DNA from: a virus
Direction: 5' to 3' (one strand)
Length of the DNA: 64,000 nucleotides
IMG/VR virus record: IMGVR_UViG_3300042349_000876
Coordinates: 6,588 to 70,587 of that record
Below the pieces are notes generated by a model. The model worked only from the letters and a program-made list of their open reading frames with translations. It was not told the origin of the DNA and ran no database searches. Below, in pieces: positions 27,792-43,094 of the stretch (its first letter is position 1; every line of letters begins with the position of its first letter). The position numbers and the translations under genes were made by a program.

Positions 27792-28295
27792 ATGCCTGTA
27801 GACAAGTCCAGCAAAGACTGCGTGGGTCAAGAAATGCGGAGATTTAAGTCGGGAGACTTACACTCCGGAACAGGCAAAAAAGGCAAAAAAGGTGGCTTAG
27901 TCAAAGACCGTAAACAAGCTATTGCGATAGCCTTAAGCGTATGTGGCAAAAGCAAAAAAGAATACTCAGAAAGAATTCAATCTTTGGGTTACACTGAAGA
28001 AACAGCTGAGACAATTACAAATTTATTGTACGGAGAGACAAACTGGAACGACCAATTTAAAACCGGGAAGACAGGACCCACAGAAAAAGGTAATTTCTCC
28101 CCTCCAAACGAATTAGATGTCGAAGCTACATTAACAGGGGCAGGCGGTAAACGCTCTTCTAAAATCCCTAGTTACATGAAGACTTCAGGAGAAGAAGGAC
28201 AAAGGTCAATCTCAGGACCAGCCTTAGAAAGAGGACCTGGAAACCCACAAGGCGGATCCAGCAAAGAGGTGCAAGGTTTACGCATGTTAGGGTGA
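27792..28295 (+). CDS. DUF6496-like basic protein
   Basis: M..FK.G.LHSG...V..RKQAIAIALS. Confidence 0.6.
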   Translation: MPVDKSSKDCVGQEMRRFKSGDLHSGTGKKGKKGGLVKDRKQAIAIALSVCGKSKKEYSERIQSLGYTEETAETITNLLYGETNWNDQFKTGKTGPTEKGNFSPPNELDVEATLTGAGGKRSSKIPSYMKTSGEEGQRSISGPALERGPGNPQGGSSKEVQGLRMLG

Positions 28296-29166: not shown

Positions 29167-29172
29167 TTTCGT

Positions 29173-29198
29173 GGGGGACCTTCGGGTCCCTCTTTTTA
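29173..29198 (+). terminator. Rho-independent terminator
   Basis: GGGGGACC-TTCG-GGTCCCTC then T run. Confidence 0.75.
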
Positions 29199-29200
29199 TT

Positions 29201-30400
29201 ATGGTAACAAACTGGGATAACGTATTCACAGCGGCCAAAAACGCTGGAGCAAAATTTCCGGAGCTAGTTGCTGCTCAGTGGGCATTAGAATCTGCCTACG
29301 GTAAGTCGACGAGCGGCAAGAACAATTTTTTCGGAATCAAGGGCAAAGGAACGAAATGCCCGACTCAGGAAGTCTATAACGGGAAGACCGTAAATATAGT
29401 AGCAGAATTTCAAGATTTTGCGACGCCAGAGGAATGCATAAAGTGGCTGGTTGACCGCTGGTACAAAGACTACAAAGGGTACAAAGGTGTAAATAATAAC
29501 GCAACGGTGGAGTTAGCAGCAAAAGACCTTGTCAAGCAAGGGTATGCCACCGATCCTAATTATGCCGAAAAACTTCTCAAAATCACTAAAGAGCATAATA
29601 CACCTGTTCCAGCTCCTCAACCTGTTGCCCCGGTAGAGCCACAACCGCACGACCAACCAATCAGCAATTCACCAATAACTGCAGAAAAGTTTGTAGATTT
29701 CTTCAAATTTTTTGATCCAAATAATTCGAACCACGTGAAAGCAGTTAAACTGCTGCACTCTCGCCTGCCGGAGGACTGTAAGCTAGCGGAGTCAGAATGG
29801 GTGGTTCAATTTAGGTCTAAAATTCCTCAACCTGACAAACCTTCGGGCATCTTGGAGGTGCCTTATTTCTCTCAGCGGAAAAATTTCCGTGACCAGGAGA
29901 GAACTTGTTTCGCCACTTGTTGTGCCATGTTGGTTGAGTATTTCCGCCCCGGAACACTCAAGGCAACCCACGGAAAGCAAGGCGATGATTCCTACCTCGA
30001 TTACTTATTCTCAATCGGCGACACTACAGATTCCGTTGTTGAAGTTCGCACACTGGCACACTTCGGAGTAAAGAGCCGATTTGTAACAAACGGTACTTTC
30101 GCAATGATTGACGCCCAACTCGCGAAACGTATACCCGTGCCAGTGGGAATACTTCACCATGGAACACCCTCCAAACCTTCCGGCGGGCACTGGATTGTGG
30201 TGATTGGAAAAATCATGGACTCAAAAGCTCCCGGAGGTTGTTGGTACGTTGTTAATGACCCTTACGGTGAAATCAACCACGCCAACGGTACCTACACCAA
30301 TGTCGACGGCAAAGGTAAAAACTATAGTAAAAACGTTCTCGTCTCTCGGTGGGCAATTGAAGGCGACGGGAGCGGCTGGGCCATAGTAGCAGAGAGGTGA
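29201..30400 (+). CDS. Endolysin: GH73 glucosaminidase plus C39-like peptidase
   Basis: AQWALES, NNFFGIK, YATDPNY; VPYFSQ...C...GHWIV...DPYG. Confidence 0.85.
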   Translation: MVTNWDNVFTAAKNAGAKFPELVAAQWALESAYGKSTSGKNNFFGIKGKGTKCPTQEVYNGKTVNIVAEFQDFATPEECIKWLVDRWYKDYKGYKGVNNNATVELAAKDLVKQGYATDPNYAEKLLKITKEHNTPVPAPQPVAPVEPQPHDQPISNSPITAEKFVDFFKFFDPNNSNHVKAVKLLHSRLPEDCKLAESEWVVQFRSKIPQPDKPSGILEVPYFSQRKNFRDQERTCFATCCAMLVEYFRPGTLKATHGKQGDDSYLDYLFSIGDTTDSVVEVRTLAHFGVKSRFVTNGTFAMIDAQLAKRIPVPVGILHHGTPSKPSGGHWIVVIGKIMDSKAPGGCWYVVNDPYGEINHANGTYTNVDGKGKNYSKNVLVSRWAIEGDGSGWAIVAER

Positions 30401-30403: not shown

Positions 30404-31147
30404 TTGAAGAATTGCAAAAAAGGAAAAAGTTGCTCAGCAACCTGTATCGCACAGATGAAAGATTGCCGAGTTGAGTTGTCAGGTCAACTTAGTGAGAATT
30501 TATCTAAAGTTGCCAAAACGATTCAACAGGCAAACCCTTATTCAGACTGGAAACCCATAGCTGAGGGTAACTATGGCAAAGTCTCTATGAGCCCTGACGG
30601 CAAGAAAGCAGTAAAAGAATTGCTCGAGCACAATGGCGTCAAGGGTGAGTTCGGGCCACATGAAGTTGACCTTGCCACAAAAATGGGTGAACTCGGTCAC
30701 TCTCCTAAAGTTTTCTCTCACAGCGAAAATCATATTGAAATGGAAAGAGCTTTAGGACGCCCTTTGTGGAAAGGGTATTCAAGAGCTGAAGACGAACCCT
30801 CAATGAATGCTGAGCAAGCTACAAAGGCAGCAGCAGCGATTCGAGACTTGCACAAAATGGGTTTCAGTCACCACGATATGCACAGTCAGCAGTTTCTCGT
30901 GGATGGCAACAACGTCAAACTGGTGGATTTTGGATTAAGCAAGCCAGCCAAAGACGAACCCCGTGCGGTGGTTCAAGACTTAAACAAAATCTCGAAACTT
31001 GTTGATTGGGATAATCCGAAACTTGATAACGACCCTTACGTGGAGTTGGTTCGACGCACTCGGAAAAAGTACGCGGAGGCCAATAAAAAGAAACAAGAAG
31101 AAGAAAAAGTAGCTATTCAATACTTAAGGGAGCTTGAAGAGTATTGA
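30404..31147 (+). CDS. Protein kinase-like protein with Cys-rich N-terminus
   Basis: IAEGNYGKV, AVK, HHDMH, LVDFG; leader KNCKKGKSCSATCI. Confidence 0.75.
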   Translation: MKNCKKGKSCSATCIAQMKDCRVELSGQLSENLSKVAKTIQQANPYSDWKPIAEGNYGKVSMSPDGKKAVKELLEHNGVKGEFGPHEVDLATKMGELGHSPKVFSHSENHIEMERALGRPLWKGYSRAEDEPSMNAEQATKAAAAIRDLHKMGFSHHDMHSQQFLVDGNNVKLVDFGLSKPAKDEPRAVVQDLNKISKLVDWDNPKLDNDPYVELVRRTRKKYAEANKKKQEEEKVAIQYLRELEEY

Positions 31148-31150: not shown

Positions 31151-31345
31151 ATGCCAAGAGAGTGGGATACGCCGTTACGTGAACCTTGGAACCCTGTTAT
31201 AAAATCTTGTTTAAAAGCTGTTGATCAACATACTCAACTTTACATTGAAACGGGAGAAAACTGGCATTCGGAACAAGCACAACACTTGAGAGACTATGTT
31301 CACGGTTTGAAACAGTGGATACACAAACAAGAGGGTAAAATATAA
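31151..31345 (+). CDS. Small cyanophage-type hypothetical protein
   Basis: MPREW.TP.REPWN..I...LKAVD.H. Confidence 0.6.
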   Translation: MPREWDTPLREPWNPVIKSCLKAVDQHTQLYIETGENWHSEQAQHLRDYVHGLKQWIHKQEGKI

Positions 31346-31369: not shown

Positions 31370-32155
31370 ATGAAAGGCTATTTCTCCGAAGAAGCTCTCG
31401 AACTTTATGCTAACCTAGCTGCCGAAAAAGCCGGCATAGACTTCGCGGAAGGCGAAGTGTACGACTTCACACGTTGTATGCGCTCTGACGGAACTTTCTA
31501 CGGCACTGCTGGGAAATGCCGCCAAGGGAGTGAAACCGGAGCCAAAGAGAAAGAAGCACCTAAGAGAACGGGTAGGTTAAATAAAGAGAAGCAGTGGAGT
31601 CCCCCAGTAGGAGGCAAGCGGCCCCCGGAGAACCCCACGGCTGAGCAAATCACGAAGATGAGCAAGGACGAACTGTGGAACGGAAAGGCAGCCTACAAAC
31701 CTGGCACCGCTGGGCACCAGGCGTACAAGAACGAAATCGAACGCCGACGGGACCTGGAAGAAAAGCTGAAGGCCAGGGGGGTAGAGCCGCAGTCGGCGCC
31801 TAAAGCTACCTCACAAAAAGCAAGCAAAGAAGCGAAGGAAGAGTATAAAGCGGCGTGGGATGAAGCGAAAGCTGCACGCAAGGCGGCAAACGAGGCTGTG
31901 AAAAATTACAAACAACACACGGAAATGCTGAAAGAGGCGACTGGAATGTCACCGGCGCAGAAAAGGAAGGTGTTGCAAAAATTAATCACTGAGGCCAACA
32001 AGGCGGATCGTGCGGCGGCGAAAGCGGAGCGCAAGCGTGATGCTGCAGCAAAGCGGTGGGCGACCGCGGATAAGCGTGAACAGCGGGCGAAAATGAGTCC
32101 TGACCAGTTGAAGGAAGCTCGGAGAATTGACAAAATTATTAAAGAACAAGGATGA
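31370..32155 (+). CDS. Shared-leader protein with K/A/E-rich helical C-terminus
   Basis: Leader DFTRCMRSDGTFYGTAGKCRQG. Confidence 0.6.
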   Translation: MKGYFSEEALELYANLAAEKAGIDFAEGEVYDFTRCMRSDGTFYGTAGKCRQGSETGAKEKEAPKRTGRLNKEKQWSPPVGGKRPPENPTAEQITKMSKDELWNGKAAYKPGTAGHQAYKNEIERRRDLEEKLKARGVEPQSAPKATSQKASKEAKEEYKAAWDEAKAARKAANEAVKNYKQHTEMLKEATGMSPAQKRKVLQKLITEANKADRAAAKAERKRDAAAKRWATADKREQRAKMSPDQLKEARRIDKIIKEQG

Positions 32156-33153
32156 TAGGAAACTTCTCTCCCGACGCACTTTCTGCGTTTCAAAATTTGG
32201 TTGCCGAGGGTCTCTCTGAAGAGCAAATCTTCGATTTCACTCGCTGTGTTCGCCCTGACGGGACTGCCTACGGAACCAGCGGTAAATGCCGCAAAGGTAC
32301 AGAAGAAGCTAAAACCGTAGAAGCAGCTAAACCAAAAATCGCTGCTGCACCAAAAGCTTCAAAGCCTGCCAAACCTTCTAAACCCGCTAAACCTGTTAAA
32401 GGCGACGCCAAAGAGATATACGCCGCTTTAATGAGAAAGCAGCAGGAGCTTGTGAAAAAGGGTGACATTAACGGTGCCATGAGCTTAAACGAAAAGCTCA
32501 AAGCCGTTGCGGAAAAAATTAAAAATTCTCCAGAAACAAAAGCTGCGGAGGAGAAAATGAAGAAAGAGGCAGCGGCAAGGACGAAAGAAGAAAAAGATTT
32601 CAGTAAGGCACAAGCTAAACGGGAGGCAGGGCAAATGGCCGCTAACCTAACCGCAAAAGACAAAAAAGTAATAGCAGACTATACCAAAGAAACCGGGGGT
32701 CAAAGTGCTAGGTCTTACGACAACATGAACGGTTGCCTTAGAAACCCACCAACCTGCCGTGACCCTAAAGTCTCAAAAACTTTCGTAAAAGAGTTTGATG
32801 CGGCATTAAACAAGCTTCCAAAAAATGAGACCGGAGAACGGTTTTACAGAGGCATACAAGTTTATCCCGGGCAGACCGAACAACTTTATAAAGCCCTGGA
32901 AAACGCAAAACCTGGTGCTAGGATGAAAGACCCGGGCTATGGCTCGTACTCAGCGGAAAGGAAGCAAGCGGAGCACTTTACTAACAGACTTGGCAGGAAT
33001 ATAATATTTGTGACCCGAAGTAAGAGTATTACACCCATTAACATGTTCTCAGAAGTTAAAAGCGAGAACGAGGCTATCCTCCCCAGAGGAACCGAACAAA
33101 CCATTCGCAAAGTGACCAAAGAAGGCAAAAATTTAATCGTGGAGCTAGATTGA
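32152..33153 (+). CDS. Shared-leader protein with C-terminal VIP2/Alt-like ADP-ribosyltransferase
   Basis: MNGCLR, FYRG, YGSYS, ENEAILPRG form the R-S-E catalytic signature. Confidence 0.8.
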   Translation: MIGNFSPDALSAFQNLVAEGLSEEQIFDFTRCVRPDGTAYGTSGKCRKGTEEAKTVEAAKPKIAAAPKASKPAKPSKPAKPVKGDAKEIYAALMRKQQELVKKGDINGAMSLNEKLKAVAEKIKNSPETKAAEEKMKKEAAARTKEEKDFSKAQAKREAGQMAANLTAKDKKVIADYTKETGGQSARSYDNMNGCLRNPPTCRDPKVSKTFVKEFDAALNKLPKNETGERFYRGIQVYPGQTEQLYKALENAKPGARMKDPGYGSYSAERKQAEHFTNRLGRNIIFVTRSKSITPINMFSEVKSENEAILPRGTEQTIRKVTKEGKNLIVELD

Positions 33154-33154
33154 G

Positions 33155-33292
33155 ATGAAAAAACCTGAGCCTGAACAGCAAAAAAGCAGCGGTATTACTA
33201 ACCGCATGAACGATTTTTATTTCGAGTTGAAGCACCCGGACGGTAAGACGGAGGTTTTTGGAGGAGAAGAAGAAACCCAAGAAGAGGACTAA
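33155..33292 (+). CDS. Small acidic protein downstream of ART
   Basis: 45 aa read manually, ends GGEEETQEED. Confidence 0.4.
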   Translation: MKKPEPEQQKSSGITNRMNDFYFELKHPDGKTEVFGGEEETQEED

Positions 33293-33294
33293 AG

Positions 33295-33322
33295 TTTACA
33301 TTTCGAAACGTAAGGGTATAAT
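33295..33322 (+). promoter_or_regulatory. Sigma70-type promoter of psbA
   Basis: TTTACA, 16 nt spacer, TATAAT. Confidence 0.65.
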
Positions 33323-33388
33323 TGAGATGTAGGCGGTCAGTTCGTGACTCCGCTGAGTATTCTCTGCAAATATGTACTCTTATGATCA

Positions 33389-34471
33389 ATGACTGTTTCT
33401 ACTCTTTCTCGCCGCTCAACTAATTCCGGCTGGGAATCTTTCTGTGAATGGGTGACCTCCACCAACAATCGTCTTTATGTTGGCTGGTTTGGCGTCCTGA
33501 TGATTCCAACGTTGCTTGCCGCAACTACTTGCTTCATTGTTGCTTTCATCGCCGCTCCTCCCGTCGACATCGACGGCATTCGTGAACCTGTTGCTGGTTC
33601 TCTTATGTATGGAAACAATATCATCTCCGGTGCTGTTGTTCCCTCTAGCAACGCTATCGGTCTTCACTTCTACCCGATCTGGGAAGCCGCCAGCCTCGAC
33701 GAGTGGCTGTACAACGGCGGTCCTTTCCAGTTGGTGATTTTCCACTTCCTCATCGGCATCTACGCCTACATGGGACGTGAGTGGGAACTCTCCTACCGCC
33801 TGGGCATGCGCCCCTGGATCTGTGTCGCTTACTCTGCCCCGGTTGCCGCAGCCTCAGCTGTATTCCTTGTCTATCCGTTTGGCCAAGGGTCTTTCAGTGA
33901 CGCAATGCCTCTGGGTATCAGCGGAACCTTCAACTACATGTTGGTTTTCCAAGCCGAACATAATATCCTCATGCACCCGTTCCACATGCTCGGGGTTGCT
34001 GGGGTCTTCGGTGGTTCGCTGTTTAGCGCCATGCATGGCTCTCTGGTTACGTCTTCTCTTGTTCGCGAGACCACTGAGAACGAGTCTCAGAACTACGGTT
34101 ACAAGTTTGGTCAAGAAGAAGAGACCTACAACATCGTGGCTGCCCACGGTTACTTTGGACGACTGATTTTCCAATACGCCTCGTTCAACAACAGCCGCAG
34201 CCTGCACTTCTTCCTGGCTGCCTGGCCTGTCGTCGGCATCTGGTTCACCGCCCTGGGCGTGAGCACGATGGCCTTCAACCTGAACGGTTTTAACTTTAAT
34301 CAATCCGTTATGGATAGTCAGGGCCATGTCCTGAATACTTGGGCCGACGTGCTGAACCGCGCTGGTCTCGGCATGGAAGTGATGCACGAGAGAAACGCAC
34401 ACAATTTCCCCCTTGACCTGGCTGCTGCTGGTGTCAGTGAGGTCGCTCTGACTGCCCCAGCCATCGGCTGA
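33389..34471 (+). CDS. psbA: Photosystem II D1 protein
   Basis: Full-length D1 (RLYVGWFG...HNFPLDLA), no intron. Confidence 0.99.
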
Positions 34472-34493
34472 CCCTAGGTAGTTAAAGTTCCTT

Positions 34494-34523
34494 GCCCCTG
34501 GCTTAAACGGTCGGGGGCTTTTT
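34494..34523 (+). terminator. Rho-independent terminator after psbA
   Basis: GCCCCTGGC...GTCGGGGGC then T run. Confidence 0.65.
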
Positions 34524-34553
34524 ATTCGGTGTGTATCTGATCGTAACCTTACT

Positions 34554-35609
34554 ATGACTGCTTCAACCCTTTCTCTTCCTCAACGGGGATGGTTCGATGT
34601 CCTGGATGACTGGCTTAAACGCGATCGCTTTGTCTTTGTGGGCTGGTCTGGACTACTTCTTTTTCCCACTGCTTATTTGGCCCTTGGTGGCTGGCTTACT
34701 GGCACAACGTTTGCTACTAGCTGGTACACCCACGGGCTGGCGTCTAGTTACCTTGAGGGTGCTAATTTCCTCACGGCAGCTGTGTCAACGCCTGCTGACG
34801 CTATGGGTCATTCTCTTCTTCTACTTTGGGGTCCTGAGTCTCAGGGGGATTTCGTCCGCTGGGTCCAACTTGGGGGACTCTGGCCTTTCGTGGCCCTCCA
34901 CGGGGCTTTCGCTCTAATCGGTTTCATGCTCCGTCAGTTTGAGATTGCGCGTTTGGTCGGTATCAGACCTTATAACGCAATCGCGTTCTCTGGCCCTATC
35001 GCAGTATTCGTCTCCGTATTCTTAATGTATCCACTGGGTCAATCCAGTTGGTTCTTCGCCCCTTCTTTCGGTGTCGCGGCAATCTTCCGCTTCCTGCTGT
35101 TCCTGCAGGGCTTCCACAACTGGACCCTGAACCCGTTCCACATGATGGGGGTTGCGGGTATTCTCGGTGGCGCCCTCCTTTGTGCTATTCACGGAGCAAC
35201 CGTAGAAAACACTCTCTACGAGGATGGTGAAAAAGCAAATACCTTCAAGGCATTTGAGCCGACTCAAGAGGAAGAAACCTATTCGATGGTTACCGCCAAC
35301 CGCTTCTGGAGTCAAATTTTCGGTATTGCTTTTAGTAACAAAAGGTGGCTACACTTTTTTATGTTGTTCGTTCCGGTGATGGGTCTGTGGGTGTCATCGA
35401 TTGGAATTATTGGTCTTGCCCTTAATCTTCGTGCCTATGACTTTGTAAGTCAGGAGATTCGTGCAGCGGAAGACCCAGAATTCGAGACTTTTTATACTAA
35501 AAACATTCTTCTAAACGAAGGTCTTCGCGCTTGGATGGCTCCTGTAGACCAACCGCACGAAAACTTCATCTTCCCGGAAGAAGCACTTCCACGAGGCAAC
35601 GCGCTGTGA
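34554..35609 (+). CDS. psbD: Photosystem II D2 protein
   Basis: Full-length D2 ([14 protein letters not shown]...LPRGNAL). Confidence 0.99.
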
Positions 35610-35740
35610 ACCCGTTTTATGCAGCAGCTTTTATTATCTCTGTTCTACTTGTGATCGCCTTGTTGCAAGATAGCATAGATGACGATAACGATGGGCCTGG
35701 CGGCGGTACCTTACAGCCTGCCTACTCTACCAGAGGGTAA
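35606..35740 (+). CDS. Small membrane protein
   Basis: GTGA coupling; TM helix then [14 protein letters not shown]. Confidence 0.55.
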
Positions 35741-35747
35741 GATCAAA

Positions 35748-35806
35748 TACGTTCATTTGCTATTTGCAAATAGCAAACGGAAGTAGGCACATGCTGAAGG
35801 AACGCG
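35748..35806 (+). promoter_or_regulatory. Glutamine riboswitch (glnA RNA motif)
   Basis: CGTTCA-hairpin-ACGGAAGTAGGC-loop-GCTGAAGGAACGC matches glnA motif architecture. Confidence 0.85.
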
Positions 35807-35833
35807 AAATGTTCATACATTTCGGAGAATCCA

Positions 35834-35965
35834 ATGTCAATCGCTACGTATCGTGGTGTCCCTTATGACACCGACGCTCGCAAAAACCTTCCCCCTGAGA
35901 AACATATTGTCACGGAAACCTATCGTGGTACCAAGCACAATGAAGTCGTGGAGGTGCGGAAATGA
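35834..35965 (+). CDS. DUF4278-like protein
   Basis: MSIATYRGVPYDT...TYRGTKH, two YRG motifs, downstream of riboswitch. Confidence 0.8.
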   Translation: MSIATYRGVPYDTDARKNLPPEKHIVTETYRGTKHNEVVEVRK

Positions 35966-36067
35966 AACCTGCATTCCTCACCTGGCTATTTGCTAAGATC
36001 AAGGCAACTGCCCGCATCGAGAAGCAATACACCTCAAACAAACCGTCTGGAATAATTTAAAATAACG

Positions 36068-36090
36068 GAGAGGGCAACCTCTCCTTTATT
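36068..36090 (+). terminator. Rho-independent terminator
   Basis: GGAGAGG-GCAA-CCTCTCC-TTTAT. Confidence 0.7.
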
Positions 36091-36135
36091 GTAAGTAGTT
36101 TACCTACCCAAATTAAGGGTATATTAACTGTAGCA

Positions 36136-36759
36136 GTGTATAGATTCATGACGTACGATCGTAATCCGAAATTCGGAGCGGACGCTGGTTTTCAGGCGAC
36201 TGCTAGAAAAGTAGGGGATATGCTTTGGGAGGCAACTCGCGGAGATGTAAGTGCCATTCCCCCTAGCTATCTGGAGAATCTTCGTCATGAGTACGCCGAA
36301 GGCAAGGTATCCATGCTTGAGCTTATGGACCGTGTCGATCTAGGTAGCAATGCTACTTACGAAGACTACTGCGAAGTTTTTGACGAATTGCTTCAAGTAG
36401 ACGGAAGTCAATGGCCGGACCCGAAGTCAGTACTTTACGTAGATCCCGCCCGAATTGCCACCAACAGAAACGTTGACTTCTCGGAATTTGGCGACTTCGA
36501 GTTTGCAGAAACTGGAGATTTGAGCGACAAGATTGAAAAATTCCTTCAAAAGGTTATTGCCTCTGTGTACCTTGACGGCGTAAGCTCTGTTACAGACGCA
36601 GAAGGTAATCCTCCCAACGAAAATAACAACTATTTGCTATCCGAAGACGGTTCTGAATTCAGTGGAGTTTTTTACGACAATTCGGACCCTTCTAACCCGA
36701 AACAATTTCCGTTTCAAATTCAAGAAACCGCTCCCAATAAATGGTCCATTAAATACTAA
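36136..36759 (+). CDS. Acidic hypothetical protein, paralog of 8472-9137
   Basis: Shared N- and C-terminal blocks; start may be ATG 36148. Confidence 0.55.
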   Translation: MYRFMTYDRNPKFGADAGFQATARKVGDMLWEATRGDVSAIPPSYLENLRHEYAEGKVSMLELMDRVDLGSNATYEDYCEVFDELLQVDGSQWPDPKSVLYVDPARIATNRNVDFSEFGDFEFAETGDLSDKIEKFLQKVIASVYLDGVSSVTDAEGNPPNENNNYLLSEDGSEFSGVFYDNSDPSNPKQFPFQIQETAPNKWSIKY

Positions 36760-36928
36760 CCGTGAGCACTCAAAAAGGACAAAACGACAAAGACACTGCA
36801 AAGGCATGTGAAGGAAGCGAGCTGAACGGGAAAAACGCATCTTTTCGGCATTCCCCGATGATTAGCGAGCCTGCTCTTGTCATTAAACAAAAGCTTCCAG
36901 GTGCTCTTGTACCCCGAGGTAATTCCGT

Positions 36929-37210
36929 ATGAAGCACCTTGTAAAGTCTTTCCAGGAACACTTAGGACAGAGAGGAGTTCATTTTTACGACGAGACAGGT
37001 TGTAACTTTTTGAACTGGACTCAAGTTTTCGAGTTTATGAAAACTTTTCCAAATGGGGGAGAAGCAGACGCTTTTTCAGAAAAATTGACCGATGCCATGG
37101 CAAATTATGACCCACAAACAGAGTACTTAGCGGTTCAACAGCGCGGTAAGTCAATTTCTGTGGAAATTTATACGGACTCTCGAACCCAACAAATTAAGGG
37201 TAAAATGTAA
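36929..37210 (+). CDS. Hypothetical protein
   Basis: 93 aa ORF. Confidence 0.5.
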   Translation: MKHLVKSFQEHLGQRGVHFYDETGCNFLNWTQVFEFMKTFPNGGEADAFSEKLTDAMANYDPQTEYLAVQQRGKSISVEIYTDSRTQQIKGKM

Positions 37211-37227
37211 TGTCAATCTAAAAGGCT

Positions 37228-37560
37228 ATGGCAAATAGTGGATTCTCACAAGATGCTGTTCTGTCTGCCTATTCTATGGCAGCAGAAGCTGCTAACTCGA
37301 ATATAAACGAGTTTGCTAAAGAAAGTAGCTTTTTAGACTTTGCAGTTTCATCTTTAGGTCCTGGTATGACCATGGATGTTCAGTGCGATACTGGTTTACC
37401 TGTTTCAACACCTGAAGAAAAAAGAGAACAACTGTTTAGGAAGAAAGTTTTGCAATCTCAACGCAAAGCTAACGCCATTGCCGAGAAAAATAGCCGTGCA
37501 CAACAAAAGGCTATGAAAAAATCCGAACTGCTTGCTCGTAGAGAAAGAAAAAGAAAATGA
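37228..37560 (+). CDS. Hypothetical protein with weak shared leader and basic tail
   Basis: SGFSQDAVLSAY...LDFA; GGGTAAAA upstream. Confidence 0.5.
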   Translation: MANSGFSQDAVLSAYSMAAEAANSNINEFAKESSFLDFAVSSLGPGMTMDVQCDTGLPVSTPEEKREQLFRKKVLQSQRKANAIAEKNSRAQQKAMKKSELLARRERKRK

Positions 37561-37997
37561 ATAACACTAATTTCGAACTTTTAGCCAACAGAGCAATATT
37601 GTATTTAAATAATGCTATTATTGTTTCTAAACTAAGCCATTGGAATGTTCGTGGGCCGAATTTCTATGAGGCTCATCTTTTGTTTGATCGAGTTCATGGC
37701 GATATAGAAGGTTTGATGGACCCTCTAATCGAGCAACTGCGGGCATTCGGGTTTAATCCCGATTTCGAACTGTTTAAAGGTCCAGGCATTTCGATGACTA
37801 CCGGCAACGCTTCTGAATTAGTTGAGTTGAACCTTGACTATATTATGACTTTGTTGGGCATCATCAACGAATTTTTCAACTATTCTTCGGATCAAGAGAA
37901 CGACCCGAGGCATGTAGGTTTAGCAGATCACTTGGGTGGTATGGCGAGCACCGTCTTAGTAGACCAGTACTTGCTTCAAGCATGGCTGGGGCACTGA
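37557..37997 (+). CDS. dps: Dps/ferritin-like protein
   Basis: HWNVRGPNFYEAHLLFD...D.LIEQLR. Confidence 0.8.
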   Translation: MNNTNFELLANRAILYLNNAIIVSKLSHWNVRGPNFYEAHLLFDRVHGDIEGLMDPLIEQLRAFGFNPDFELFKGPGISMTTGNASELVELNLDYIMTLLGIINEFFNYSSDQENDPRHVGLADHLGGMASTVLVDQYLLQAWLGH

Positions 37998-38048
37998 GTT
38001 TACCGAGAGATTTAGAGGCTATATTGCTTTCGAACCGTTTTTAAGGGG

Positions 38049-38246
38049 ATGTACCTGGTAGTCAATGCAACCGGTAAACTTTGGACTGGAGATGGTTGGA
38101 GTGTCCAAGGTCGGGAATTTTTCACTTTGGGTTTAGCCAAACGCTCTTTGCACGAAGAGGGTGAAGATATTGACTCTGTTACTTTCATCCTCGCAGACCT
38201 GTACAAACACATTGCTTCAAGTGATACCTCCCAGGAAGTTCCCTGA
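38049..38246 (+). CDS. Small hypothetical protein
   Basis: Behind TTTACC/TATATT promoter. Confidence 0.45.
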   Translation: MYLVVNATGKLWTGDGWSVQGREFFTLGLAKRSLHEEGEDIDSVTFILADLYKHIASSDTSQEVP

Positions 38247-38415
38247 AGGAACTATAAAATTGCTGCAAATTAATCCGGACGGTACAAAAACCGTTTTAGA
38301 AGAGCGTACAGCTACTCAAAAAGCAAGGATAACACTTCAGCAAAAAATAAACGAGAGCCTCATGCTAAACCCTACACTCCAGTTTATTCTGGTGGAAAAC
38401 AATGCCATTGTCTGA
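38221..38415 (+). CDS. Small hypothetical protein
   Basis: ORF track, GTG start chosen. Confidence 0.4.
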   Translation: MIPPRKFPEGTIKLLQINPDGTKTVLEERTATQKARITLQQKINESLMLNPTLQFILVENNAIV

Positions 38416-38584
38416 AAACACTCACTATATTACTTCTTGTAGTACCGATGAGGAGGGGAACCTTATTCTAACTTTTCCTGATGATCTCCTTGACGCAATG
38501 GGTTGGGGAGAAGACACGGAGCTAGAGATTGAAGCCATGCCGGGAACTATTATCATGCGAGAATGCCTCAAGTCTGACCGATGA
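38402..38584 (+). CDS. AbrB/MazE-like DNA-binding protein
   Basis: LILTFPDDLL..MGW.E...LEI. Confidence 0.7.
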   Translation: MPLSENTHYITSCSTDEEGNLILTFPDDLLDAMGWGEDTELEIEAMPGTIIMRECLKSDR

Positions 38585-38850
38585 AGTTTAGTTTACTGTC
38601 TGGTTCAGGAAACAGTTACATGACCACCGTTCGCATTGACGAACGCAACTCTAGTGCTCAAGTTTGGTGGTGTGACTCGAAAAAAGAGTGGCACTGGATG
38701 CTGGTGTGGGAGGATGGTACGAGCTGGGGCACACACATGCATAACGGTATCGCCCCAAGCAAAATGAAAGCCAGGGCAGACATTGTTAAGACCATCCTTT
38801 GGGTGGAAGACAAATGGCCCTCTCTGGAATACTTTGAGAACAACTGGTGA
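38581..38850 (+). CDS. Trp-rich hypothetical protein
   Basis: ATGA coupling. Confidence 0.45.
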   Translation: MKFSLLSGSGNSYMTTVRIDERNSSAQVWWCDSKKEWHWMLVWEDGTSWGTHMHNGIAPSKMKARADIVKTILWVEDKWPSLEYFENNW

Positions 38851-38875
38851 GGGTAAAACCTAGAAAAAGGTAGTC

Positions 38876-39526
38876 ATGAACGGAACTTTTTCGGAAAATT
38901 CTCTTCAACAATACTCAAACTTAGTTAAAGAGAAAGTAGAATTAAACTACTCTGAGGAAGCAGGTTCGTACGACTTCACCCTCTGCGTCAGGCCTGATGG
39001 CTCTCTCTACGGGACCGGGGGACAATGTAGGAAAGGAACGGAGACTTCTTCGAGAGTTCCTATTCATCAACACAAAAGTCTGAAAGAGGGTGGTTCTTCT
39101 TTCACACCTCTAGAAAAAGCGTTGAGTAAACTTAAAAAACTTGAAAGGAGAATTAAAGACCCTGACTATTCTCCCTCTGATGAGGAACTTGCACGGTACG
39201 GCAGATTAAAAGGAGCGGTTGAGGAAGCACAAAGAAGCTCTGAAAAGAAAGACCGTGAAATAAATCTGCCCCGAAAAGCCCCTATGGACTTAAAAGCCAA
39301 AGTAGATGAAGTCGTTAATAAAAAATCCACACCAAAAAGGGATTTCAAGGACGCATTAGAAAATATGAAAGATGAAATAGATAAAAGGGAGAAAGAAGTT
39401 AATGGGAACTTTGGACTTAACAAGATGTTTCCGGGGCCCTGGCAGACCGCCCAATCCAAGGTTTTAGAAAGTCTAAAAGAAAATTATGACAAAGCAGTCA
39501 AAATCTATAACAATAGATACGTATAA
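38876..39526 (+). CDS. Shared-leader protein with charged helical C-terminus
   Basis: Leader YDFTLCVRPDGSLYGTGGQCRKG. Confidence 0.6.
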   Translation: MNGTFSENSLQQYSNLVKEKVELNYSEEAGSYDFTLCVRPDGSLYGTGGQCRKGTETSSRVPIHQHKSLKEGGSSFTPLEKALSKLKKLERRIKDPDYSPSDEELARYGRLKGAVEEAQRSSEKKDREINLPRKAPMDLKAKVDEVVNKKSTPKRDFKDALENMKDEIDKREKEVNGNFGLNKMFPGPWQTAQSKVLESLKENYDKAVKIYNNRYV

Positions 39527-39713: not shown

Positions 39714-39785
39714 GGGTCTGTAACTCAACGGTAGAGTAACGGGCTTTTAACCTGGAAGTTGTGGGTTCAAATCCCACCAGACCCA
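39714..39785 (+). tRNA. tRNA-Lys(UUU)
   Basis: Cloverleaf GGGTCTG/CAGACCC, loop CTTTTAA. Confidence 0.9.
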
Positions 39786-39865
39786 TCGTCCCGACACCCC
39801 TGGAGTTGTAGGCTTCGTTTTTCGTCGCGGACAAACGTGATGGGCATCACGAAAAACTGCCCCCT

Positions 39866-39948
39866 GCTTGAGTGGCGGAATTGGTAGACGCCCTGGTTTT
39901 AGGTACCAGTGTCCTTGTGACGTGGAGGTTCAAGTCCTCTCTCAAGCA
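39866..39948 (+). tRNA. tRNA-Leu(UAG)
   Basis: GCTTGAG/CTCAAGC, loop TTTAGGT, long variable arm. Confidence 0.92.
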
Positions 39949-39965
39949 TTGCCTTCGGGCAAATT

Positions 39966-40050
39966 GCAGGAAGTGCGGTGCCTCTCTCAGGTCATTGACT
40001 TGGTGAAGCAAAAGAGGATTCCAGGTGCACTTGATCCGGGTCCCTCCTGC
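39966..40050 (+). ncRNA. Unidentified structured RNA between tRNA-Leu and tRNA-Asn
   Basis: Nested stems GCAGG/CCTGC, AAGTGC/GCACTT, CCTCT/AGAGG, CAGGTC/GACTTG. Confidence 0.45.
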
Positions 40051-40056
40051 TATCAA

Positions 40057-40128
40057 TGGCGTGTAGCTCAACGGCAGAGCTGACGGCTGTTAACCGTCCG
40101 GTTGCAGGTTCGAATCCTGCCACGCCAG
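40057..40128 (+). tRNA. tRNA-Asn(GUU)
   Basis: TGGCGTG/CACGCCA, loop CTGTTAA. Confidence 0.92.
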
Positions 40129-40130
40129 TT

Positions 40131-40570
40131 GGGTGCTTGATTCTGAAGCGAATAAGCATTAAACAACGGACGCTCTAATCCGTGCCCATGATCCCCAGAT
40201 GCCATTTGGCCGTTTCCTTAGTCTGGGGTGATAAAAAGGGTCAAACGGCCATTGGGGTTGAGTAGCAAGTAAGGAGCGGTGCTTAGAAAGGAAGCTATTT
40301 GATACTCCCGCTCACCCCACAACCACCCACACTGCTCTGTCGGTGTGGTGCGGCCAGTAGAGATCCAGGATCATTCTCTCTGGTTCGCGTACAAGTCCTG
40401 GGTTCTCTCAGGCCGGGGAAGTGATCCTCCCCGCGCAAGTTCCCGCTCTGCGAAAGCATCGGGCTGACCCACTGCCGGGTCGCGATGGCGGGCAGTTGCC
40501 ATCGTTCCATTTTGCGGTTTGCCTCACCGTCCCGCGTTCTTCGGATCGCCCGAGGGAGAACGGGGCACCT
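40131..40570 (+). ncRNA. Large unidentified structured RNA(s)
   Basis: GC-rich, no credible ORF, dense helices, potential pseudoknots and a loop-loop pair. Confidence 0.6.
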
Positions 40571-40660
40571 GGGAGTGCACCTTGGATGGTGGGCGCGACG
40601 GCGTCAGAGGCGGTTCGATTCCGTCCCTGGGATATGGTGGTTCGATTCCACCCACTCCCT
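40571..40660 (+). ncRNA. tRNA-like RNA with two T-arms and no anticodon loop
   Basis: GGGAGTG/CACTCCC acceptor; two GGTTCGATTCC hairpins. Confidence 0.65.
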
Positions 40661-40686
40661 ATTGCCACTGCATTGCAGCGGCATTT

Positions 40687-40820
40687 GCGAGATTTATCTC
40701 GCCCCTAAGTCCCAGTTCTGGGGTCCTGCATTGGTCAGGGTTACCCTTCCTGGGCCGGAGGAGTTGATCGCCCTTCGCACACCCCCTATGCCTCTCAACG
40801 ATGCACAAATCTGGGGGTCA
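40687..40820 (+). ncRNA. Unidentified structured RNA upstream of tRNA-Thr
   Basis: GCGAGA/TCTCGC, CCCAG/CTGGG, TGCATTG/CGATGCA. Confidence 0.45.
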
Positions 40821-40822
40821 CT

Positions 40823-40894
40823 GCCGGTGTAGTATAAAGGTTATTACAGAACTTTGGTAAAGTTCAAACGACGGTTCAATTCCGCCCACTGGCT
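40823..40894 (+). tRNA. tRNA-Thr(GGU)
   Basis: GCCGGTG/CACTGGC, GAACT-TTGGTAA-AGTTC. Confidence 0.85.
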
Positions 40895-40928
40895 TGGGCT
40901 GACTCGTTCGCTGTATGGTTTAATCAAC

Positions 40929-41438
40929 ATGTTAGAAATTACTGACAATTTTTTAGAGGAAACAGAATTAGAGAACATCAAAAACACTCTCTTAAATACG
41001 AACTTTCCTTGGTTGTATAGCGAATCAAAAGTCTCCCAAAATGACTCTACTCCTCAATTTTTTCACACACTCTGGCACCCTCCTCACGGCAACAATAGCT
41101 CCCACGCAGGGTTGCTAGGTTTTTTCGAGAAAAAGCTAAAAGTAGGGTTGTGGGCCCGTGCTAAATTTAATTTAACTTTGCCCGGTCAGTGTTTGAAACA
41201 AACCGAGTTTCACGTAGATCAGACTCTAAAAGGAGCCAAAACAGCCATTTATTACTTGACGACTACAAATGGTCCGACAGTTTTTAAAGGTTTTGATTCC
41301 GTGGAGTGTGTGAGAAACCGCTTGGTATGTTTTGACTCAAAAATACACCATGCGGCAACTTTACACACAGAGGGTGATGTTGCTCGAATCGTTTTAAACT
41401 TAAATTTCATTCAAAACGAAAATCACGAGACCCTATAG
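40929..41438 (+). CDS. 2OG-Fe(II) oxygenase
   Basis: FHVD, TAIYY..T.NG.T.F, NRLV.FD...H...R..LN.N. Confidence 0.8.
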   Translation: MLEITDNFLEETELENIKNTLLNTNFPWLYSESKVSQNDSTPQFFHTLWHPPHGNNSSHAGLLGFFEKKLKVGLWARAKFNLTLPGQCLKQTEFHVDQTLKGAKTAIYYLTTTNGPTVFKGFDSVECVRNRLVCFDSKIHHAATLHTEGDVARIVLNLNFIQNENHETL

Positions 41439-41500
41439 TGAAGTGGTTATCACGCTACCCTGTCACGGTAGTATCACGAGTTCAAATCTCGTTAGGGTCG
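41429..41500 (+). tRNA. tRNA-Asp(GUC)
   Basis: GACCCTA/TAGGGTC, loop CTGTCAC; overlaps upstream stop codon. Confidence 0.9.
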
Positions 41501-41501
41501 T

Positions 41502-41645
41502 CGGTACTCGTTAGGCAGATAGCCTAGAAGGAGGCCGAAGAGGGTGCAACAAGGAACGTTGCATTAAATGAAGGATCCCCTAAGCTGCATCGTAGATTCA
41601 ACTTTGACGGCCTCGGTCGTTATCGTAGGCAGACATCCTCGCCCT
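41502..41645 (+). ncRNA. Unidentified structured RNA between tRNA-Asp and tRNA-Ile
   Basis: TAGGC/GCCTA, TGCAAC/GTTGCA, TGACGGC/GTCGTTA. Confidence 0.45.
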
Positions 41646-41649
41646 GCTT

Positions 41650-41723
41650 GGAAATATAGCTCAGTTGGTTAGAGCATTCGACTGATAATCGAAAGGTCGC
41701 AAGTTCGAGTCTTGCTATTTCCA
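41650..41723 (+). tRNA. tRNA-Ile(GAU)
   Basis: GGAAATA/TATTTCC, loop CTGATAA. Confidence 0.92.
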
Positions 41724-41741
41724 TTGCCTTCGGGCATTTAT

Positions 41742-41813
41742 GGTCCATTCGTCTAGCGGTTAGGACACCACCCTTTCACGGTGTAGACACGAGTTCGATT
41801 CTCGTATGGACTA
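41742..41813 (+). tRNA. tRNA-Glu(UUC)
   Basis: GGTCCAT/ATGGACT, loop CTTTCAC. Confidence 0.9.
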
Positions 41814-41816
41814 CCT

Positions 41817-41893
41817 ACTCTCTTAGCTCAGCGGATTAGAGCGTCTGACTACGGATCAGAAGGTCGCAAGTTCGAATCTTGCAGAGGGTGCCA
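41817..41893 (+). tRNA. tRNA-Arg(ACG)
   Basis: ACTCTCT/AGAGGGT, loop CTACGGA, encoded CCA. Confidence 0.9.
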
Positions 41894-41984
41894 GGCGGGT
41901 TGGCTGAGTGGCTGAAAGCAGGAGTTTGCTAAACTCCCAGGAGGGTTTACCTCCTCGAAGGTTCGAATCCTTCACCCGCCGCCA
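41894..41984 (+). tRNA. tRNA-Ser(GCU)
   Basis: GGCGGGT/ACCCGCC, loop TTGCTAA, long variable arm, CCA. Confidence 0.92.
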
Positions 41985-42055
41985 CGGGATGTAGTAAAAT
42001 GGTATCACGCTGCGTTTGGGACGCAGAAACGTAGGTTCGATTCCTACCATCCCGA
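41985..42055 (+). tRNA. tRNA-Pro(UGG)
   Basis: CGGGATG/CATCCCG, loop TTTGGGA. Confidence 0.92.
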
Positions 42056-42058
42056 CTC

Positions 42059-42130
42059 GGGGTGCTGGCGCAATGGTAGCGCAGATCCTTTGCAAGGATA
42101 AGGTTATCGGTTCGAGTCCGATGCATTCCA
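42059..42130 (+). tRNA. tRNA-Ala(UGC)
   Basis: GGGGTGC/GCATTCC with G3:U70, loop TTTGCAA. Confidence 0.9.
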
Positions 42131-42149
42131 TTGCCCTTTTGGGCAACAA

Positions 42150-42325
42150 TCTGTCCGACACAGGCGTTCAATTCGCCTTACCTCCACTTTACGGGGGTAA
42201 ACTGGTTATCGACCGGGCAGAGGGTTTGAGAATAAATCTCAACAACATTCGCAAATTCGAGCGCATTGCTGTTGCCGTCTAGGCACTCAATTCGTGACGA
42301 CATACGGGGAGCTTAGCCTCCCCTT
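42150..42325 (+). ncRNA. ssrA: Two-piece (circularly permuted) tmRNA
   Basis: Acceptor piece GAC..GGCGTTCAATTCGCC-TTACCTCCA precedes 5' end GGGGGTAAACTGGTTATCGAC; G3:U70; tag LNNIRKFERIAVAV*. Confidence 0.85.
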
Positions 42326-42330
42326 TATTT

Positions 42331-42507
42331 ATGGATCACCCAATGATGATGCTTTTTACAGCCAAGTGGAATATTCCACAAGCTTCTGAAGCATTAGGCA
42401 AACCTGCTTGTGAAACGAGTTGGGAAGAAACGAAAGAACTTTTTCGCAAGTTCTGTCAAGAACACCCTCCCATTCACGTTTACGAACCTTTAGAAAACCT
42501 AAACTAA
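42331..42507 (+). CDS. Small cyanophage-type protein (MLF.AKWN.P.A family)
   Basis: 58 aa read manually. Confidence 0.55.
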   Translation: MDHPMMMLFTAKWNIPQASEALGKPACETSWEETKELFRKFCQEHPPIHVYEPLENLN

Positions 42508-42672
42508 AACGTTGCTTTTTACTTTACCGATTTATGAGATCGGCCCTGCCAGACACTGCGGGGAGCAGCTCGGACGCTGATATTGCGTCTTAAATTACCT
42601 GAGCCACCCACAAGTGCCGTTGAAATGCGGAACCACACTTTGCGAGGTGGATGTTGAGTTCTATCCGTATTA

Positions 42673-43041
42673 ATGCTTTTTTCTAAACTGAAGGTTCTTT
42701 TTGGGACCGCTGCGATTGCCGGATTGTCTATTCTTTCACCGTTGCCTTCGCAAGCCGCATCTTGCGGTTATGCGAGTCACTACGGGATGGGAGATGGCTA
42801 CCATGGTCAAACCACAGCAAGCGGAGAGCGATTTAACACTTACGCTCACACAGCAGCTCACCCGTCTCTCCCAATGGGAACCCGCCTACGAGTAACCCGT
42901 GGTTCTCGGTCCGTTGTCGTTCGAATCAATGACAGAGGCCCTTACTACGGTGGTCGTCAACTTGACCTCTCCTACGCTGCTTTTAGCCAACTGGCGCCAC
43001 CGAGTAGGGGGGAAATCCACGTCTGTTACTCGCGAGTGTAA
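42673..43041 (+). CDS. rlpA: RlpA-like lytic transglycosylase (DPBB) with signal peptide
   Basis: ASHYG...TASGERF...AAH.SLP.GT...VRINDRGP...DLS.AAF. Confidence 0.9.
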   Translation: MLFSKLKVLFGTAAIAGLSILSPLPSQAASCGYASHYGMGDGYHGQTTASGERFNTYAHTAAHPSLPMGTRLRVTRGSRSVVVRINDRGPYYGGRQLDLSYAAFSQLAPPSRGEIHVCYSRV

Positions 43042-43094
43042 GTTTACGAACTTTGCTTGTGACTATACTGGGTGTGTTACACACCCTTTCTTTC

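Follow-up and report, generated by a model that had tools for sequence, protein, structure and literature searches.

The window, the whole 64,000-nucleotide stretch of DNA analyzed here, is a fragment of a large uncultured cyanophage related to Synechococcus phage S-CBWM1, the nearest cultured phage. Three of its genes, named by their start positions (31370, 32152, and 38876), encode proteins that begin with a common module of ~55 amino acids and lie near a kinase-like gene, a peptidoglycan hydrolase gene, a small gene (37228), and copies of the motif GGGTAAAA (Table 1). The gene coordinates of 31370 and 32152 overlap by 4 nt, bearing out the operon suggested for them. A blastn search with positions 31370-33153 against 50,697 phage records returned no match, and a homology search for the portal and protease did not find homologs in the window's own record.

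Table 1. Coordinates of the module genes, neighboring genes, and promoter-like motifs in the window.
Feature	Position	Strand	Description
Glucosaminidase + Peptidase_C39-like peptidoglycan hydrolase	29171..30400	+	Context gene, directly upstream of kinase 30404
Kinase-like protein	30404..31147	+	247 aa, TTG start, N-terminal 4-Cys module
GGGTAAAA promoter-like motif	31333..31340	+	37 nt 5' of 31370 ATG
Module protein 1	31370..32155	+	261 aa; module = residues 1-55 (31370-31534)
Module protein 1, Cys-hairpin core	31463-31534	+	
Module protein 2	32152..33153	+	333 aa; module = residues 1-51 (32152-32304)
GGGTAAAA promoter-like motif	37198..37205	+	30 nt 5' of 37228 ATG
37228 protein	37228..37560	+	110 aa, basic tail; relationship to module weak
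GGGTAAAA promoter-like motif	38851..38858	+	25 nt 5' of 38876 ATG
Module protein 3	38876..39526	+	216 aa; module = residues 1-56 (38876-39043)

The original observation that the three proteins share an N-terminus and then diverge completely was upheld, as 24 of ~57 alignment columns were invariant while no BLASTP match was found among the tails at E<=1e-5. The module comprises a helix and a Cys hairpin with the core DFTRCVRPDG..YGT.G.CRKGTE, including two invariant cysteines 14 residues apart, a basic second half, and a nearly invariant terminal G-x-E in which the glutamate is conserved at 90% or more. When the phage's own record was searched by tblastn with the 31370 leader, the other two genes were recovered (E 9e-17 and 2.9e-15) and nothing else, and the leader HMM scored 31370 and 38876 at E 5.4e-24 and 6.6e-23, respectively. 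Selection acts on the tag at the protein level: where the window copies share a residue, the codons mostly differ (3/15, 5/19, and 10/18 codons identical). The predicted structure, of moderate confidence (pLDDT 75, pTM 0.38), was an amphipathic helix followed by a small beta-hairpin, with three predicted strands. No Pfam, PHROG, or PDB counterpart was identified. Foldseek with the module model gave no PDB match at E<=0.001 (best 1.3) and a sole match in BFVD, the S-CBWM1 homolog. Whatever its mechanism, the module constitutes a so far undescribed domain family suitable for inclusion by database curators.

Behind this common start, the window proteins carry different cargo. The two charged helical tails noted earlier proved basic, with pI 10.0 for 31370 (residues 58-261) and 9.6 for 38876, and ESM Atlas searches with both returned nothing beyond generic coiled-coil look-alikes (TM below about 0.5). 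In 32152, a disordered Lys/Pro/Ala linker (54-83) and then a helical region separate the module from an R-S-ExE ADP-ribosyltransferase (ART), and the AF2 model assigned pLDDT below 50 to residues 54-83 and above 90 to the cargo domain. Pfam confirmed the R-S-E ART assignment through PF03496 (3.4e-12; 46.6 bits against a gathering score of 23.4) and PF01129 (5.6e-8; 32.8 against 22.3). The catalytic residues R233, S265 (SYS), and E305-N-E307 were present, with R233, S265, and E307 invariant in 19 homologs. The predicted cargo fold resembled the Vis toxin (Foldseek E 8e-11) and C3bot (7e-9), while phmmer found no PDB sequence match for the protein at E<=0.01. The protein thus has the same R, S-x-S, and E-x-E residues and fold as the C3, Vis, and Tre1-type mono-ADP-ribosyltransferases but differs from them in its identity of only 18-24%, its phage-specific N-terminal tag, and its long helical spacer.

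The metagenome search with a leader HMM that had been proposed as a check yielded 929 cluster representatives, extending the tag-plus-variable-cargo architecture from the window to hundreds of metagenomic proteins. A back-translated DNA pattern of the core matched only two viral contigs. In a pattern scan covering 185,579 species genomes, only two marginal matches appeared; judged by sequence, the module family is large and virus-restricted. Of 227 examined proteins, 200 had the module starting at one of the first five residues and 202 carried a single module, the other 25 carrying two or three modules, some of them internal; this is more than a simple N-terminal signal needs. Related phage contigs contained arrays of module genes, with up to nine ORFs in 11 kb in L014, five in L007, and six in L010/L012. 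Single-linkage clustering of 249 tail segments produced 78 clusters. The suggested catalog of C-terminal domains indeed included diverse Pfam families, namely ARTs, kinases (Pkinase, APH, and ABC1), CTP_transf_like (NMNAT type), DUF3626, DUF6496, and DUF1090, and most tails in the 79 and 146 family members scanned had no Pfam match. The cargo was mostly basic (median tail pI 9.7; 83% above pI 9). Many cargos were short, non-enzymatic helical tails.

The kinase-like gene 30404 encodes a different N-terminal module with four cysteines (C-x5-C-x3-C-x6-C). Its Pfam scores exceeded the cutoffs for Kdo (23.5 vs 21.3) and PK_Tyr_Ser-Thr (23.2 vs 23.1) and fell just short for Pkinase (30.6 vs 31.7). 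Three homologs of this kinase (P0028, P0051, and P0052) had the 55-aa module at the position of the 4-Cys one, which at the sequence level is tag swapping between homologous kinases. Gene 30404 was also 47% identical to S-TIM5 gp208, in which neither Cys module was present; according to the virion data summarized in PMC10665884, a kinase, not necessarily gp208, has been reported in S-TIM5 virions. The APH-like, ChoK-like, and RIO-like kinases of S-CBWM1 all bear the 4-Cys module if in-frame upstream ATGs are used, the starts of two of the three being annotated downstream of the motif in its record. The same module was found on a 528-aa protein annotated in GenBank as "virion structural protein" encoded just 5' of the S-CBWM1 major head protein. 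Querying with the 4-Cys N-terminus in a word-based search returned only two proteins. Common descent of the two tags was not supported, as hhalign aligned only eight columns (K-C-x-K-G) at a probability of 2.3%.

An indirect link between the modules and virions was provided by S-CBWM1, in which gp165 is a second protein bearing the 55-aa module. Its NMNAT begins with the 55-aa module and was detected in the virion proteome according to PMC10665884 and PMC9602691, both citing Xu et al. 2018, and the APH-like, ChoK-like, and RIO-like kinases are likewise reported in S-CBWM1 virions (PMC10665884). All four non-structural enzymes reported in these accounts of S-CBWM1 virions therefore bear one of the two N-terminal Cys modules. 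Two cyanophage virion-proteome papers, including PMC9602691, state that highly expressed proteins may co-purify in CsCl. The S-CBWM1 portal is Mu-type (PF06074 at 1e-74), and its protease belongs to phrog_976, has no Pfam match, and gave nothing against PDB sequences with phmmer.

Two further features in the vicinity of the module genes fared less well. Gene 37228 had been described as carrying a weaker version of the module's first half: two leader HMMs did not match it and single-sequence comparisons gave only hhalign E 0.063 and BLASTP E 0.25, while a profile of its family (three sequences) aligned to the module at hhalign E 8e-4 (probability 24%) over 33 collinear N-terminal columns. The profile match is suggestive of kinship, and the 37228 N-terminus may be a version of the module reduced to its helical first half. 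An HMM of this first half missed 37228, and helix resemblance was dropped as evidence; the C-terminus of the S-CBWM1 RIO-like kinase, module-like by eye, and the FSE-rich repeats of the protease homologs (794-861 aa) were discarded on the same grounds, neither giving a helix-HMM match.

The motif GGGTAAAA does lie before 31370, 37228, and 38876 as noted, but specificity to module genes was not retained, as its 11 occurrences in the window (3.3 expected) also included sites 5' of other genes such as the tape-measure-like gene 10657. GGGTAAA was found within 70 nt in 15 of 24 distinct module-gene upstream regions (background 0.023 per 70 nt), mostly 29-37 nt from the ATG. According to the S-CBWM1 annotation tables, GGGTAAA precedes the genes for the major head protein, portal, protease, sheath, tape measure, tail fibers, and endolysin. 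It also precedes topoisomerase II, RNR beta, PhoH, and tRNAs and is therefore no proof of late timing. By its distribution, GGGTAAAA is a promoter-like motif that occurs across the genome and that the module genes have in common with structural genes.

Overall, the module probably serves as a tag that marks proteins for loading and for injection by the phage. The favored reading, to which we assign a probability of roughly 55%, is that the tag directs its protein into the virion, likely the head, and that the basic cargo is delivered at infection. The proteins follow a plan of N-terminal tag, disordered linker, and cargo. The tag would itself cause incorporation into the virion as it assembles, with the head interior as the likeliest destination, by binding a putative partner (scaffold/protease, portal, or DNA). 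Inside the head, the mostly basic cargo would lie alongside the DNA, the tag might be cleaved after G-x-E, and the cargo would be injected into the Synechococcus cell at infection, acting ahead of any phage gene expression; candidate actions include ADP-ribosylation of a host target, phosphorylation, and NAD+ supply. On kinases, the 4-Cys N-terminal module appears to fill this role. A bolder proposal, somewhat short of even odds, is that the 2-Cys hairpin and the 4-Cys knuckle are interchangeable virion-loading tags of a widespread large-cyanophage clade, in which case multi-module proteins would be polyproteins that the prohead protease cuts after every G-x-E.

Alternatively, the module could be an intracellular targeting or binding domain that docks effectors on a host or phage component, such as nucleic acid, RNA polymerase, the ribosome, or the thylakoid, with virion association being incidental. 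Such a role would suit the basic second half of the module and its predicted small beta-hairpin fold, the basic tails, and the internal and duplicated modules, and it would also accommodate the promoter-like motif before non-structural genes and the co-purification conceded in the proteome authors' own remarks. However, the strict N-terminal position is not needed for binding, Foldseek against PDB and BFVD matched no known nucleic-acid- or protein-binding fold, and the occurrence of a Cys module on every non-structural enzyme in the cited S-CBWM1 virion reports speaks against incidental association; this explanation is considered rather unlikely. A regulatory or oligomerization domain, for instance a metal- or redox-dependent Cys switch holding potentially toxic enzymes inactive or clustered, is improbable. 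It would make sense of the paired invariant cysteines, of the alternative 4-Cys module on homologous cargo, and of ART and kinase cargo that could harm the producing cell, but it gives no role to the many short, non-enzymatic helical cargos, leaves the virion reports unexplained, and fits poorly with an AF2 model that parts module from cargo by a low-confidence (pLDDT below 50) stretch.

Prochlorosins combine a shared leader with hypervariable cargo, and this logic, along with the position of a Peptidase_C39_2 domain gene just ahead of the module genes both in the window and in L014, raised the idea of a bacteriocin (double-glycine) type export leader processed by the neighboring C39-like peptidase. 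The idea was rejected as highly improbable: no Nif11, NHLP, or other leader family was matched at E<=1, the module ends in G-x-E without Gly-Gly, and the cargo consists of cytosolic-type enzymes of 150-500 aa. In addition, the C39-like domain in the window is fused to a glucosaminidase and the protein matches phage endolysin PHROGs at 7e-119.

The loading-tag interpretation would have several consequences. Proteins carried in the particle act within the first seconds after infection begins, ahead of transcription, and are hard to recognize from sequence; few such loading signals are known outside T4, P1, N4, and phiKZ-type phages. A conserved tag that is easy to search for, present on 929 or more protein clusters, would make injected effectors recognizable by sequence. 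If the two-tag proposal were true, the whole injected host-takeover repertoire, comprising ARTs, kinases, and NAD+ enzymes along with hundreds of basic proteins of unknown kind, could be read straight from metagenomic sequence. Marine and estuarine cyanophages kill major primary producers, and the tag would point to candidate counter-defense enzymes in the form of an NAD+-using ART and an NAD+-making NMNAT. It could also serve to load foreign proteins into the particles of cyanophages.

The closest functional comparison is with phage T4, whose internal proteins had been invoked as a parallel. According to PMC9026906, these proteins become part of the prohead core and are ejected into the host, those of T-even phages related to T4 are basic, and the capsid-targeting sequence (CTS) has been proposed as an evolutionary route to load varied cargo. 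As in the T4 CTS with IPI-III and Alt, a shared N-terminal element is found on unrelated, mostly basic proteins, and one module cargo is an ART like T4 Alt. In contrast, the T4 CTS has ~10 residues and is removed by gp21, while the ~55-residue module has predicted secondary structure and contains two invariant Cys, and no sequence relationship was apparent when the two were compared by eye. T4-like head genes (gp20 portal and gp21 protease) were not encountered, the S-CBWM1 portal being Mu-type and its protease without Pfam match. The T4 parallel therefore stands as a functional analogy at most and falls as a claim of descent.

MuF polymorphic toxins of temperate phages and polyvalent proteins of phages and conjugative elements combine a conserved N-terminal virion- or DNA-associated domain with variable toxin or enzyme C-termini, including ARTs. 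The module proteins are similar in this conserved N-terminal domain and variable, ART-containing C-termini, but Pfam did not find Phage_Mu_F in the three window proteins or the 79 or 146 family members, the module is far smaller than the MuF and polyvalent N-terminal domains, and most module proteins carry a single cargo. In phiKZ-like jumbo phages, head-protein propeptides are cut at S/A/G-x-E, and both these phages and phage P1 (Dar proteins) load many non-structural proteins into the head; the terminal G-x-E of the module would fit a Glu-P1 protease site. Finally, the cyanophage virion-enzyme papers, in their passages on these proteins, treat the cases as isolated and mention no common N-terminal module. 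The virion-associated kinases and NMNAT-like proteins reported there for S-CBWM1, S-CRM01, S-TIM5, S-CREM2, and S-SCSM1 belong to the same enzyme classes as the module cargo, and for S-CBWM1 the enzymes so reported are the very proteins that bear the two N-terminal Cys modules.

The proteins encoded at 31370, 32152, and 38876 (window genes are named by start coordinate) shared an N-terminal Cys-hairpin module and diverged fully beyond it, as the original prediction had held. Their leader alignment contained 24 invariant columns, the first leader, searched against the phage's own record, hit exactly the other two (E 9e-17 and 2.9e-15), and no tail-to-tail similarity was detected beyond the module (BLASTP, E<=1e-5). 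Between window copies, identical codons encoded 3/15, 5/19, and 10/18 of the identical core residues, and as these residues mostly used different codons the module is conserved at the protein level and not via recent gene conversion. The two tails described as charged and helical (31370 and 38876) were indeed basic (pI 10.0 and 9.6), with only generic coiled coils as structural look-alikes. The proposal of 37228 as a weaker member is tentative: neither leader HMM matched it, while its small-family profile aligned with the module over 33 collinear N-terminal columns (hhalign E 8e-4, though at a probability of 24%), and the protein may have lost the hairpin while retaining the module's helical first half. 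The AF2 model of the module (140-sequence alignment; mean pLDDT 75, pTM 0.38) comprised a helix (7-21), a loop, and three short strands (33-37, 43-47, and 54-56), without a PDB fold match at E<=0.001 and with the S-CBWM1 homolog as its only BFVD match. Full-text searches with three core peptide strings of the module returned no relevant paper, and a search for 'capsid targeting sequence' plus 'cyanophage' found a T4 review alone.

Coordinates of the features discussed, in the window and in related records
Feature	Record	Coordinates	Strand	Details
Module protein	window	31370-32155		alignable over first ~55 residues
Module protein	window	32152-33153		alignable over first ~55 residues
Module protein	window	38876-39526		alignable over first ~55 residues
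4-Cys module	window	30404-30520		on window kinase
4-Cys module	L004	5923-6039
4-Cys module	L004	6835-6951
4-Cys module	L020	20398-20514
4-Cys module	L020	16779-16895
4-Cys module	L022	2483-2602
Glucosaminidase + C39-like hydrolase	window	29171-30400		heads the cluster
167-aa protein	window	27792-28295		N-terminal DUF6496 (E 7e-11); GGGTAAAA upstream
psbA	window	33389-34471
psbD	window	34554-35609
Ferritin-like protein	window	37557-37997		PF00210, E 2e-6; gene overlaps 37228 3' end by 4 nt
GGGTAAA(A) sites (examples)	window	8439, 10615, 27759, 28296, 46049
gp165	S-CBWM1			157-aa hypothetical protein just upstream of tail sheath, portal, protease genes
Prohead protease homolog	L027	82-2577	(-)	831 aa; homologs in L026, L028, L029

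The predicted R-S-E ADP-ribosyltransferase (ART) was confirmed at the end of the 32152 protein by Pfam (PF03496, 3.4e-12; PF01129, 5.6e-8), by R233, S265, and E307 being invariant among 19 homologs, and by an AF2 model of the cargo domain (pLDDT >90) that matched Vis and C3-type ARTs in Foldseek (E 8e-11); PHROG matches to 'Alt-like' ARTs were weak. E307 lies in E-N-E, and an ExE motif is typical of Arg-specific ART enzymes. The full-length AF2 model placed 30 residues of pLDDT <50 after the module and before the cargo, and because this stretch separates the two, a layout of tag, linker, and cargo is predicted.

Neither Pfam nor PHROG contained a family for the module. A word-based search, queried with the 57-aa leader, yielded 56 proteins from 92 candidates, and profile A3, built from 28 leaders of the window and IMG/VR loci, matched 929 of 1.84 billion cluster representatives at E<=1e-3 (499 at E<=1e-10); the diverse cargo expected among viral metagenome proteins was recovered, including ARTs and kinases. 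Among the 227 proteins examined (202 from the word-based and profile searches and 25 from loci, a sample skewed to the best scores and, in its word-search part, to ART-type relatives), the module started within residues 1-5 in 200 and occurred once in 202, twice in 24, and three times in one. Removal of the modules left 249 tail segments (>=50 aa) that formed 78 single-linkage clusters, of which the biggest (120 members) may be chained through Lys/Ala/Glu-rich linkers. Cargo Pfam matches were ADPrib_exo_Tox (17), ART (11), Pkinase (4), CTP_transf_like (3), and DUF3626 (2) in a set of 79 and ADPrib_exo_Tox (4), ART (4), Pkinase (3), DUF6496 (3), and one each of CTP_transf_like, APH, ABC1, DUF3626, and DUF1090 in a set of 146, with most tails of both sets having none. 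Tail pI had a median of 9.7, exceeding 9 in 83% and falling below 6 in 7%. Contigs carried arrays of up to nine module ORFs per 11 kb (L014, one with two modules), six (L010/L012), or five (L007). Two or three modules were observed in P0001, P0003, P0004, and L014:8149-9717, which could be gene fusions or polyproteins; P0001 had unrelated cargo-like segments between and after its modules, one with a CTP_transf_like (NMNAT-type) Pfam match. A single pattern scan over 185,579 prokaryotic species genomes yielded no more than two matches, both marginal, and among 50,697 phage records the module was found in S-CBWM1 only.

The source record (70.6 kb, of which the window is 64 kb; 32% complete by CheckV) encodes in the window a ribonucleotide reductase (RNR), a primase, a tape-measure-like gene, two sigma-70-like factors, and 19 tRNA genes in two arrays (39714-45014 and 55082-55417). 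An ARAGORN 'tmRNA*' call at 42096-42407 overlaps tRNA-Ala and may be spurious. The primase shared 56% identity with its counterpart in the Synechococcus phage S-CBWM1 (139 kb; a non-T4 cyanomyovirus, genus Aokuangvirus), with more remote matches to S-TIM5, A-HIS1, and Mic1, and both phages have the gene order exonuclease/ThyX region, then RNR, sigma factor, and HSP20, then psbA. These matches and the common gene order point to a host that is very probably a picocyanobacterium. In the window, psbA lies right beside psbD and neither is interrupted (33389-35609), unlike the S-CBWM1 psbA with its homing endonuclease and two group I introns, and the kinase gene and two module genes lie between HSP20 and psbA. 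DUF6496, seen in the 27792 protein, recurs as cargo in 3/146 module proteins. The enzyme heading the cluster may also be virion-borne, since non-structural proteins found in S-SCSM1 virions include a glucosaminidase (PMC9602691, accessible part).

The motif GGGTAAAA occurred at 11 window sites compared to 3.3 +/- 1.9 expected (at least 11 in 0/100 shuffles), with 10/11 on the coding strand. It was located 25-37 nt before the ATGs of 31370, 37228, and 38876, as had been noted, and also upstream of 8472, tape-measure-like 10657, 27792, and the HSP20 gene 28361. In relatives, GGGTAAA was present <=70 nt upstream in 15/24 distinct module-gene upstream regions, mostly at 29-37 nt (background 0.023 per 70 nt). 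S-CBWM1 had 43 sites on the coding/plus strand and six on the minus strand. As read from the annotation tables, genes that follow a site at a distance of 30-98 nt include those of the major head protein, the portal, the protease, the sheath, the tape measure, two tail fibres, and the endolysin; further sites precede NMNAT, gp165, gp106, the 4-Cys virion protein, topoisomerase II, RNR beta, PhoH, and some tRNAs. With sites before structural and non-structural genes alike, the motif is a promoter-like element of general use in the phage, plausibly read using the phage sigma factors; it puts the module genes in the expression class of the structural genes but does not prove late timing. Across the clade, GGGTAAA(A) was strand-biased and genome-wide, ~30 nt before many start codons, and often overlapped the preceding stop codon.

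The two module proteins of S-CBWM1 were gp165 and its only annotated NMNAT, the latter detected in the virion proteome according to the accessible parts of two reports citing Xu et al., 2018 (PMC10665884; PMC9602691). APH-like, ChoK-like, and RIO-like kinases are also reported in these virions (PMC10665884, accessible part), and all three carried a second N-terminal module, C-x5-C-x3-C-x6-C (consensus K.C.KGKSCGA.CI....DC; alignment A7), such that 4/4 non-structural enzymes reported there bore one of the two tags. The 4-Cys motif was present in the annotated APH-like kinase and required an in-frame upstream ATG in the other two, whose deposited starts are probably ~20 codons too short. Their annotated starts (L004:5980 and L020:20464, S-CBWM1 record) fall downstream of in-frame ATGs. 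The motif was also found on gp106 and on a 'virion structural protein' whose gene immediately precedes that of the major head protein. Pfam offered nothing credible for the 4-Cys module (best E 0.014, 1/11 members). It was observed in open frames of 560-654 residues adjoining module genes on L005, L006, L013, L015, and L018. The window-kinase homologs P0028, P0051, and P0052 of metagenomic phages had the 55-aa module in place of the 4-Cys one, so on one cargo either tag can replace the other; the S-TIM5 homolog was without a Cys tag. In the accessible text, the S-CREM2 and S-SCSM1 proteome papers caution that abundant proteins may co-purify with virions.

The best reading, with a probability of about 0.55, is that tagged proteins are loaded into the particle via the tag and delivered at infection. 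They would be made together with the structural proteins, the tag would bind some component inside the assembling particle, and the basic cargo would be enclosed alongside the DNA and set free in the cell upon infection, where ART, kinases, and NMNAT would act in the host ahead of phage transcription. The phage phiKZ has a Glu-P1 prohead protease. Such a protease is also described for T4 (PMC9026906, accessible part) and the near-invariant G-x-E at the tag end, with its final Glu conserved at >=90%, would suit one; the multi-module proteins would then be polyproteins. Prohead protease homologs are an obvious candidate for the tag partner. They have 794-861 aa in related records compared to 480 aa in S-CBWM1, and in the L027 homolog the protease domain is followed by a long Asp/Glu-rich insert and then by a conserved C-terminal domain. 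The FSE-containing repeats of this homolog looked like the module's first half by eye but were not matched by HMM.

Other roles for the module were considered less probable. Binding of a host target or of nucleic acids is unlikely, albeit deserving some weight. Two Cys, three Gly, and one Tyr are invariant in the module, and a Cys-based regulatory or oligomerization domain is a doubtful explanation. As in the window, RNR and a C39-like peptidoglycan hydrolase lie upstream of the arrays in relatives, and an export leader processed by this neighboring enzyme is very improbable.

Virion-associated cyanophage kinases and NMNATs are already published, and no description of their sharing an N-terminal module was found in the accessible text of the literature searched. 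Two things give the finding real interest: the tag idea can be tested directly in S-CBWM1, a cultured relative, and in uncultured cyanophages the tag would mark out hundreds of proteins as candidate injected effectors. Pfam scans of the window proteins and the sets of 79 and 146 did not place the family among the MuF toxins. The comparison with the T4 CTS/internal-protein/Alt system held for the logic, which tag plus cargo would share by analogy, whereas membership failed as tag size, tag sequence, and head-gene lineage differ, this clade having a Mu-type portal unlike T4.
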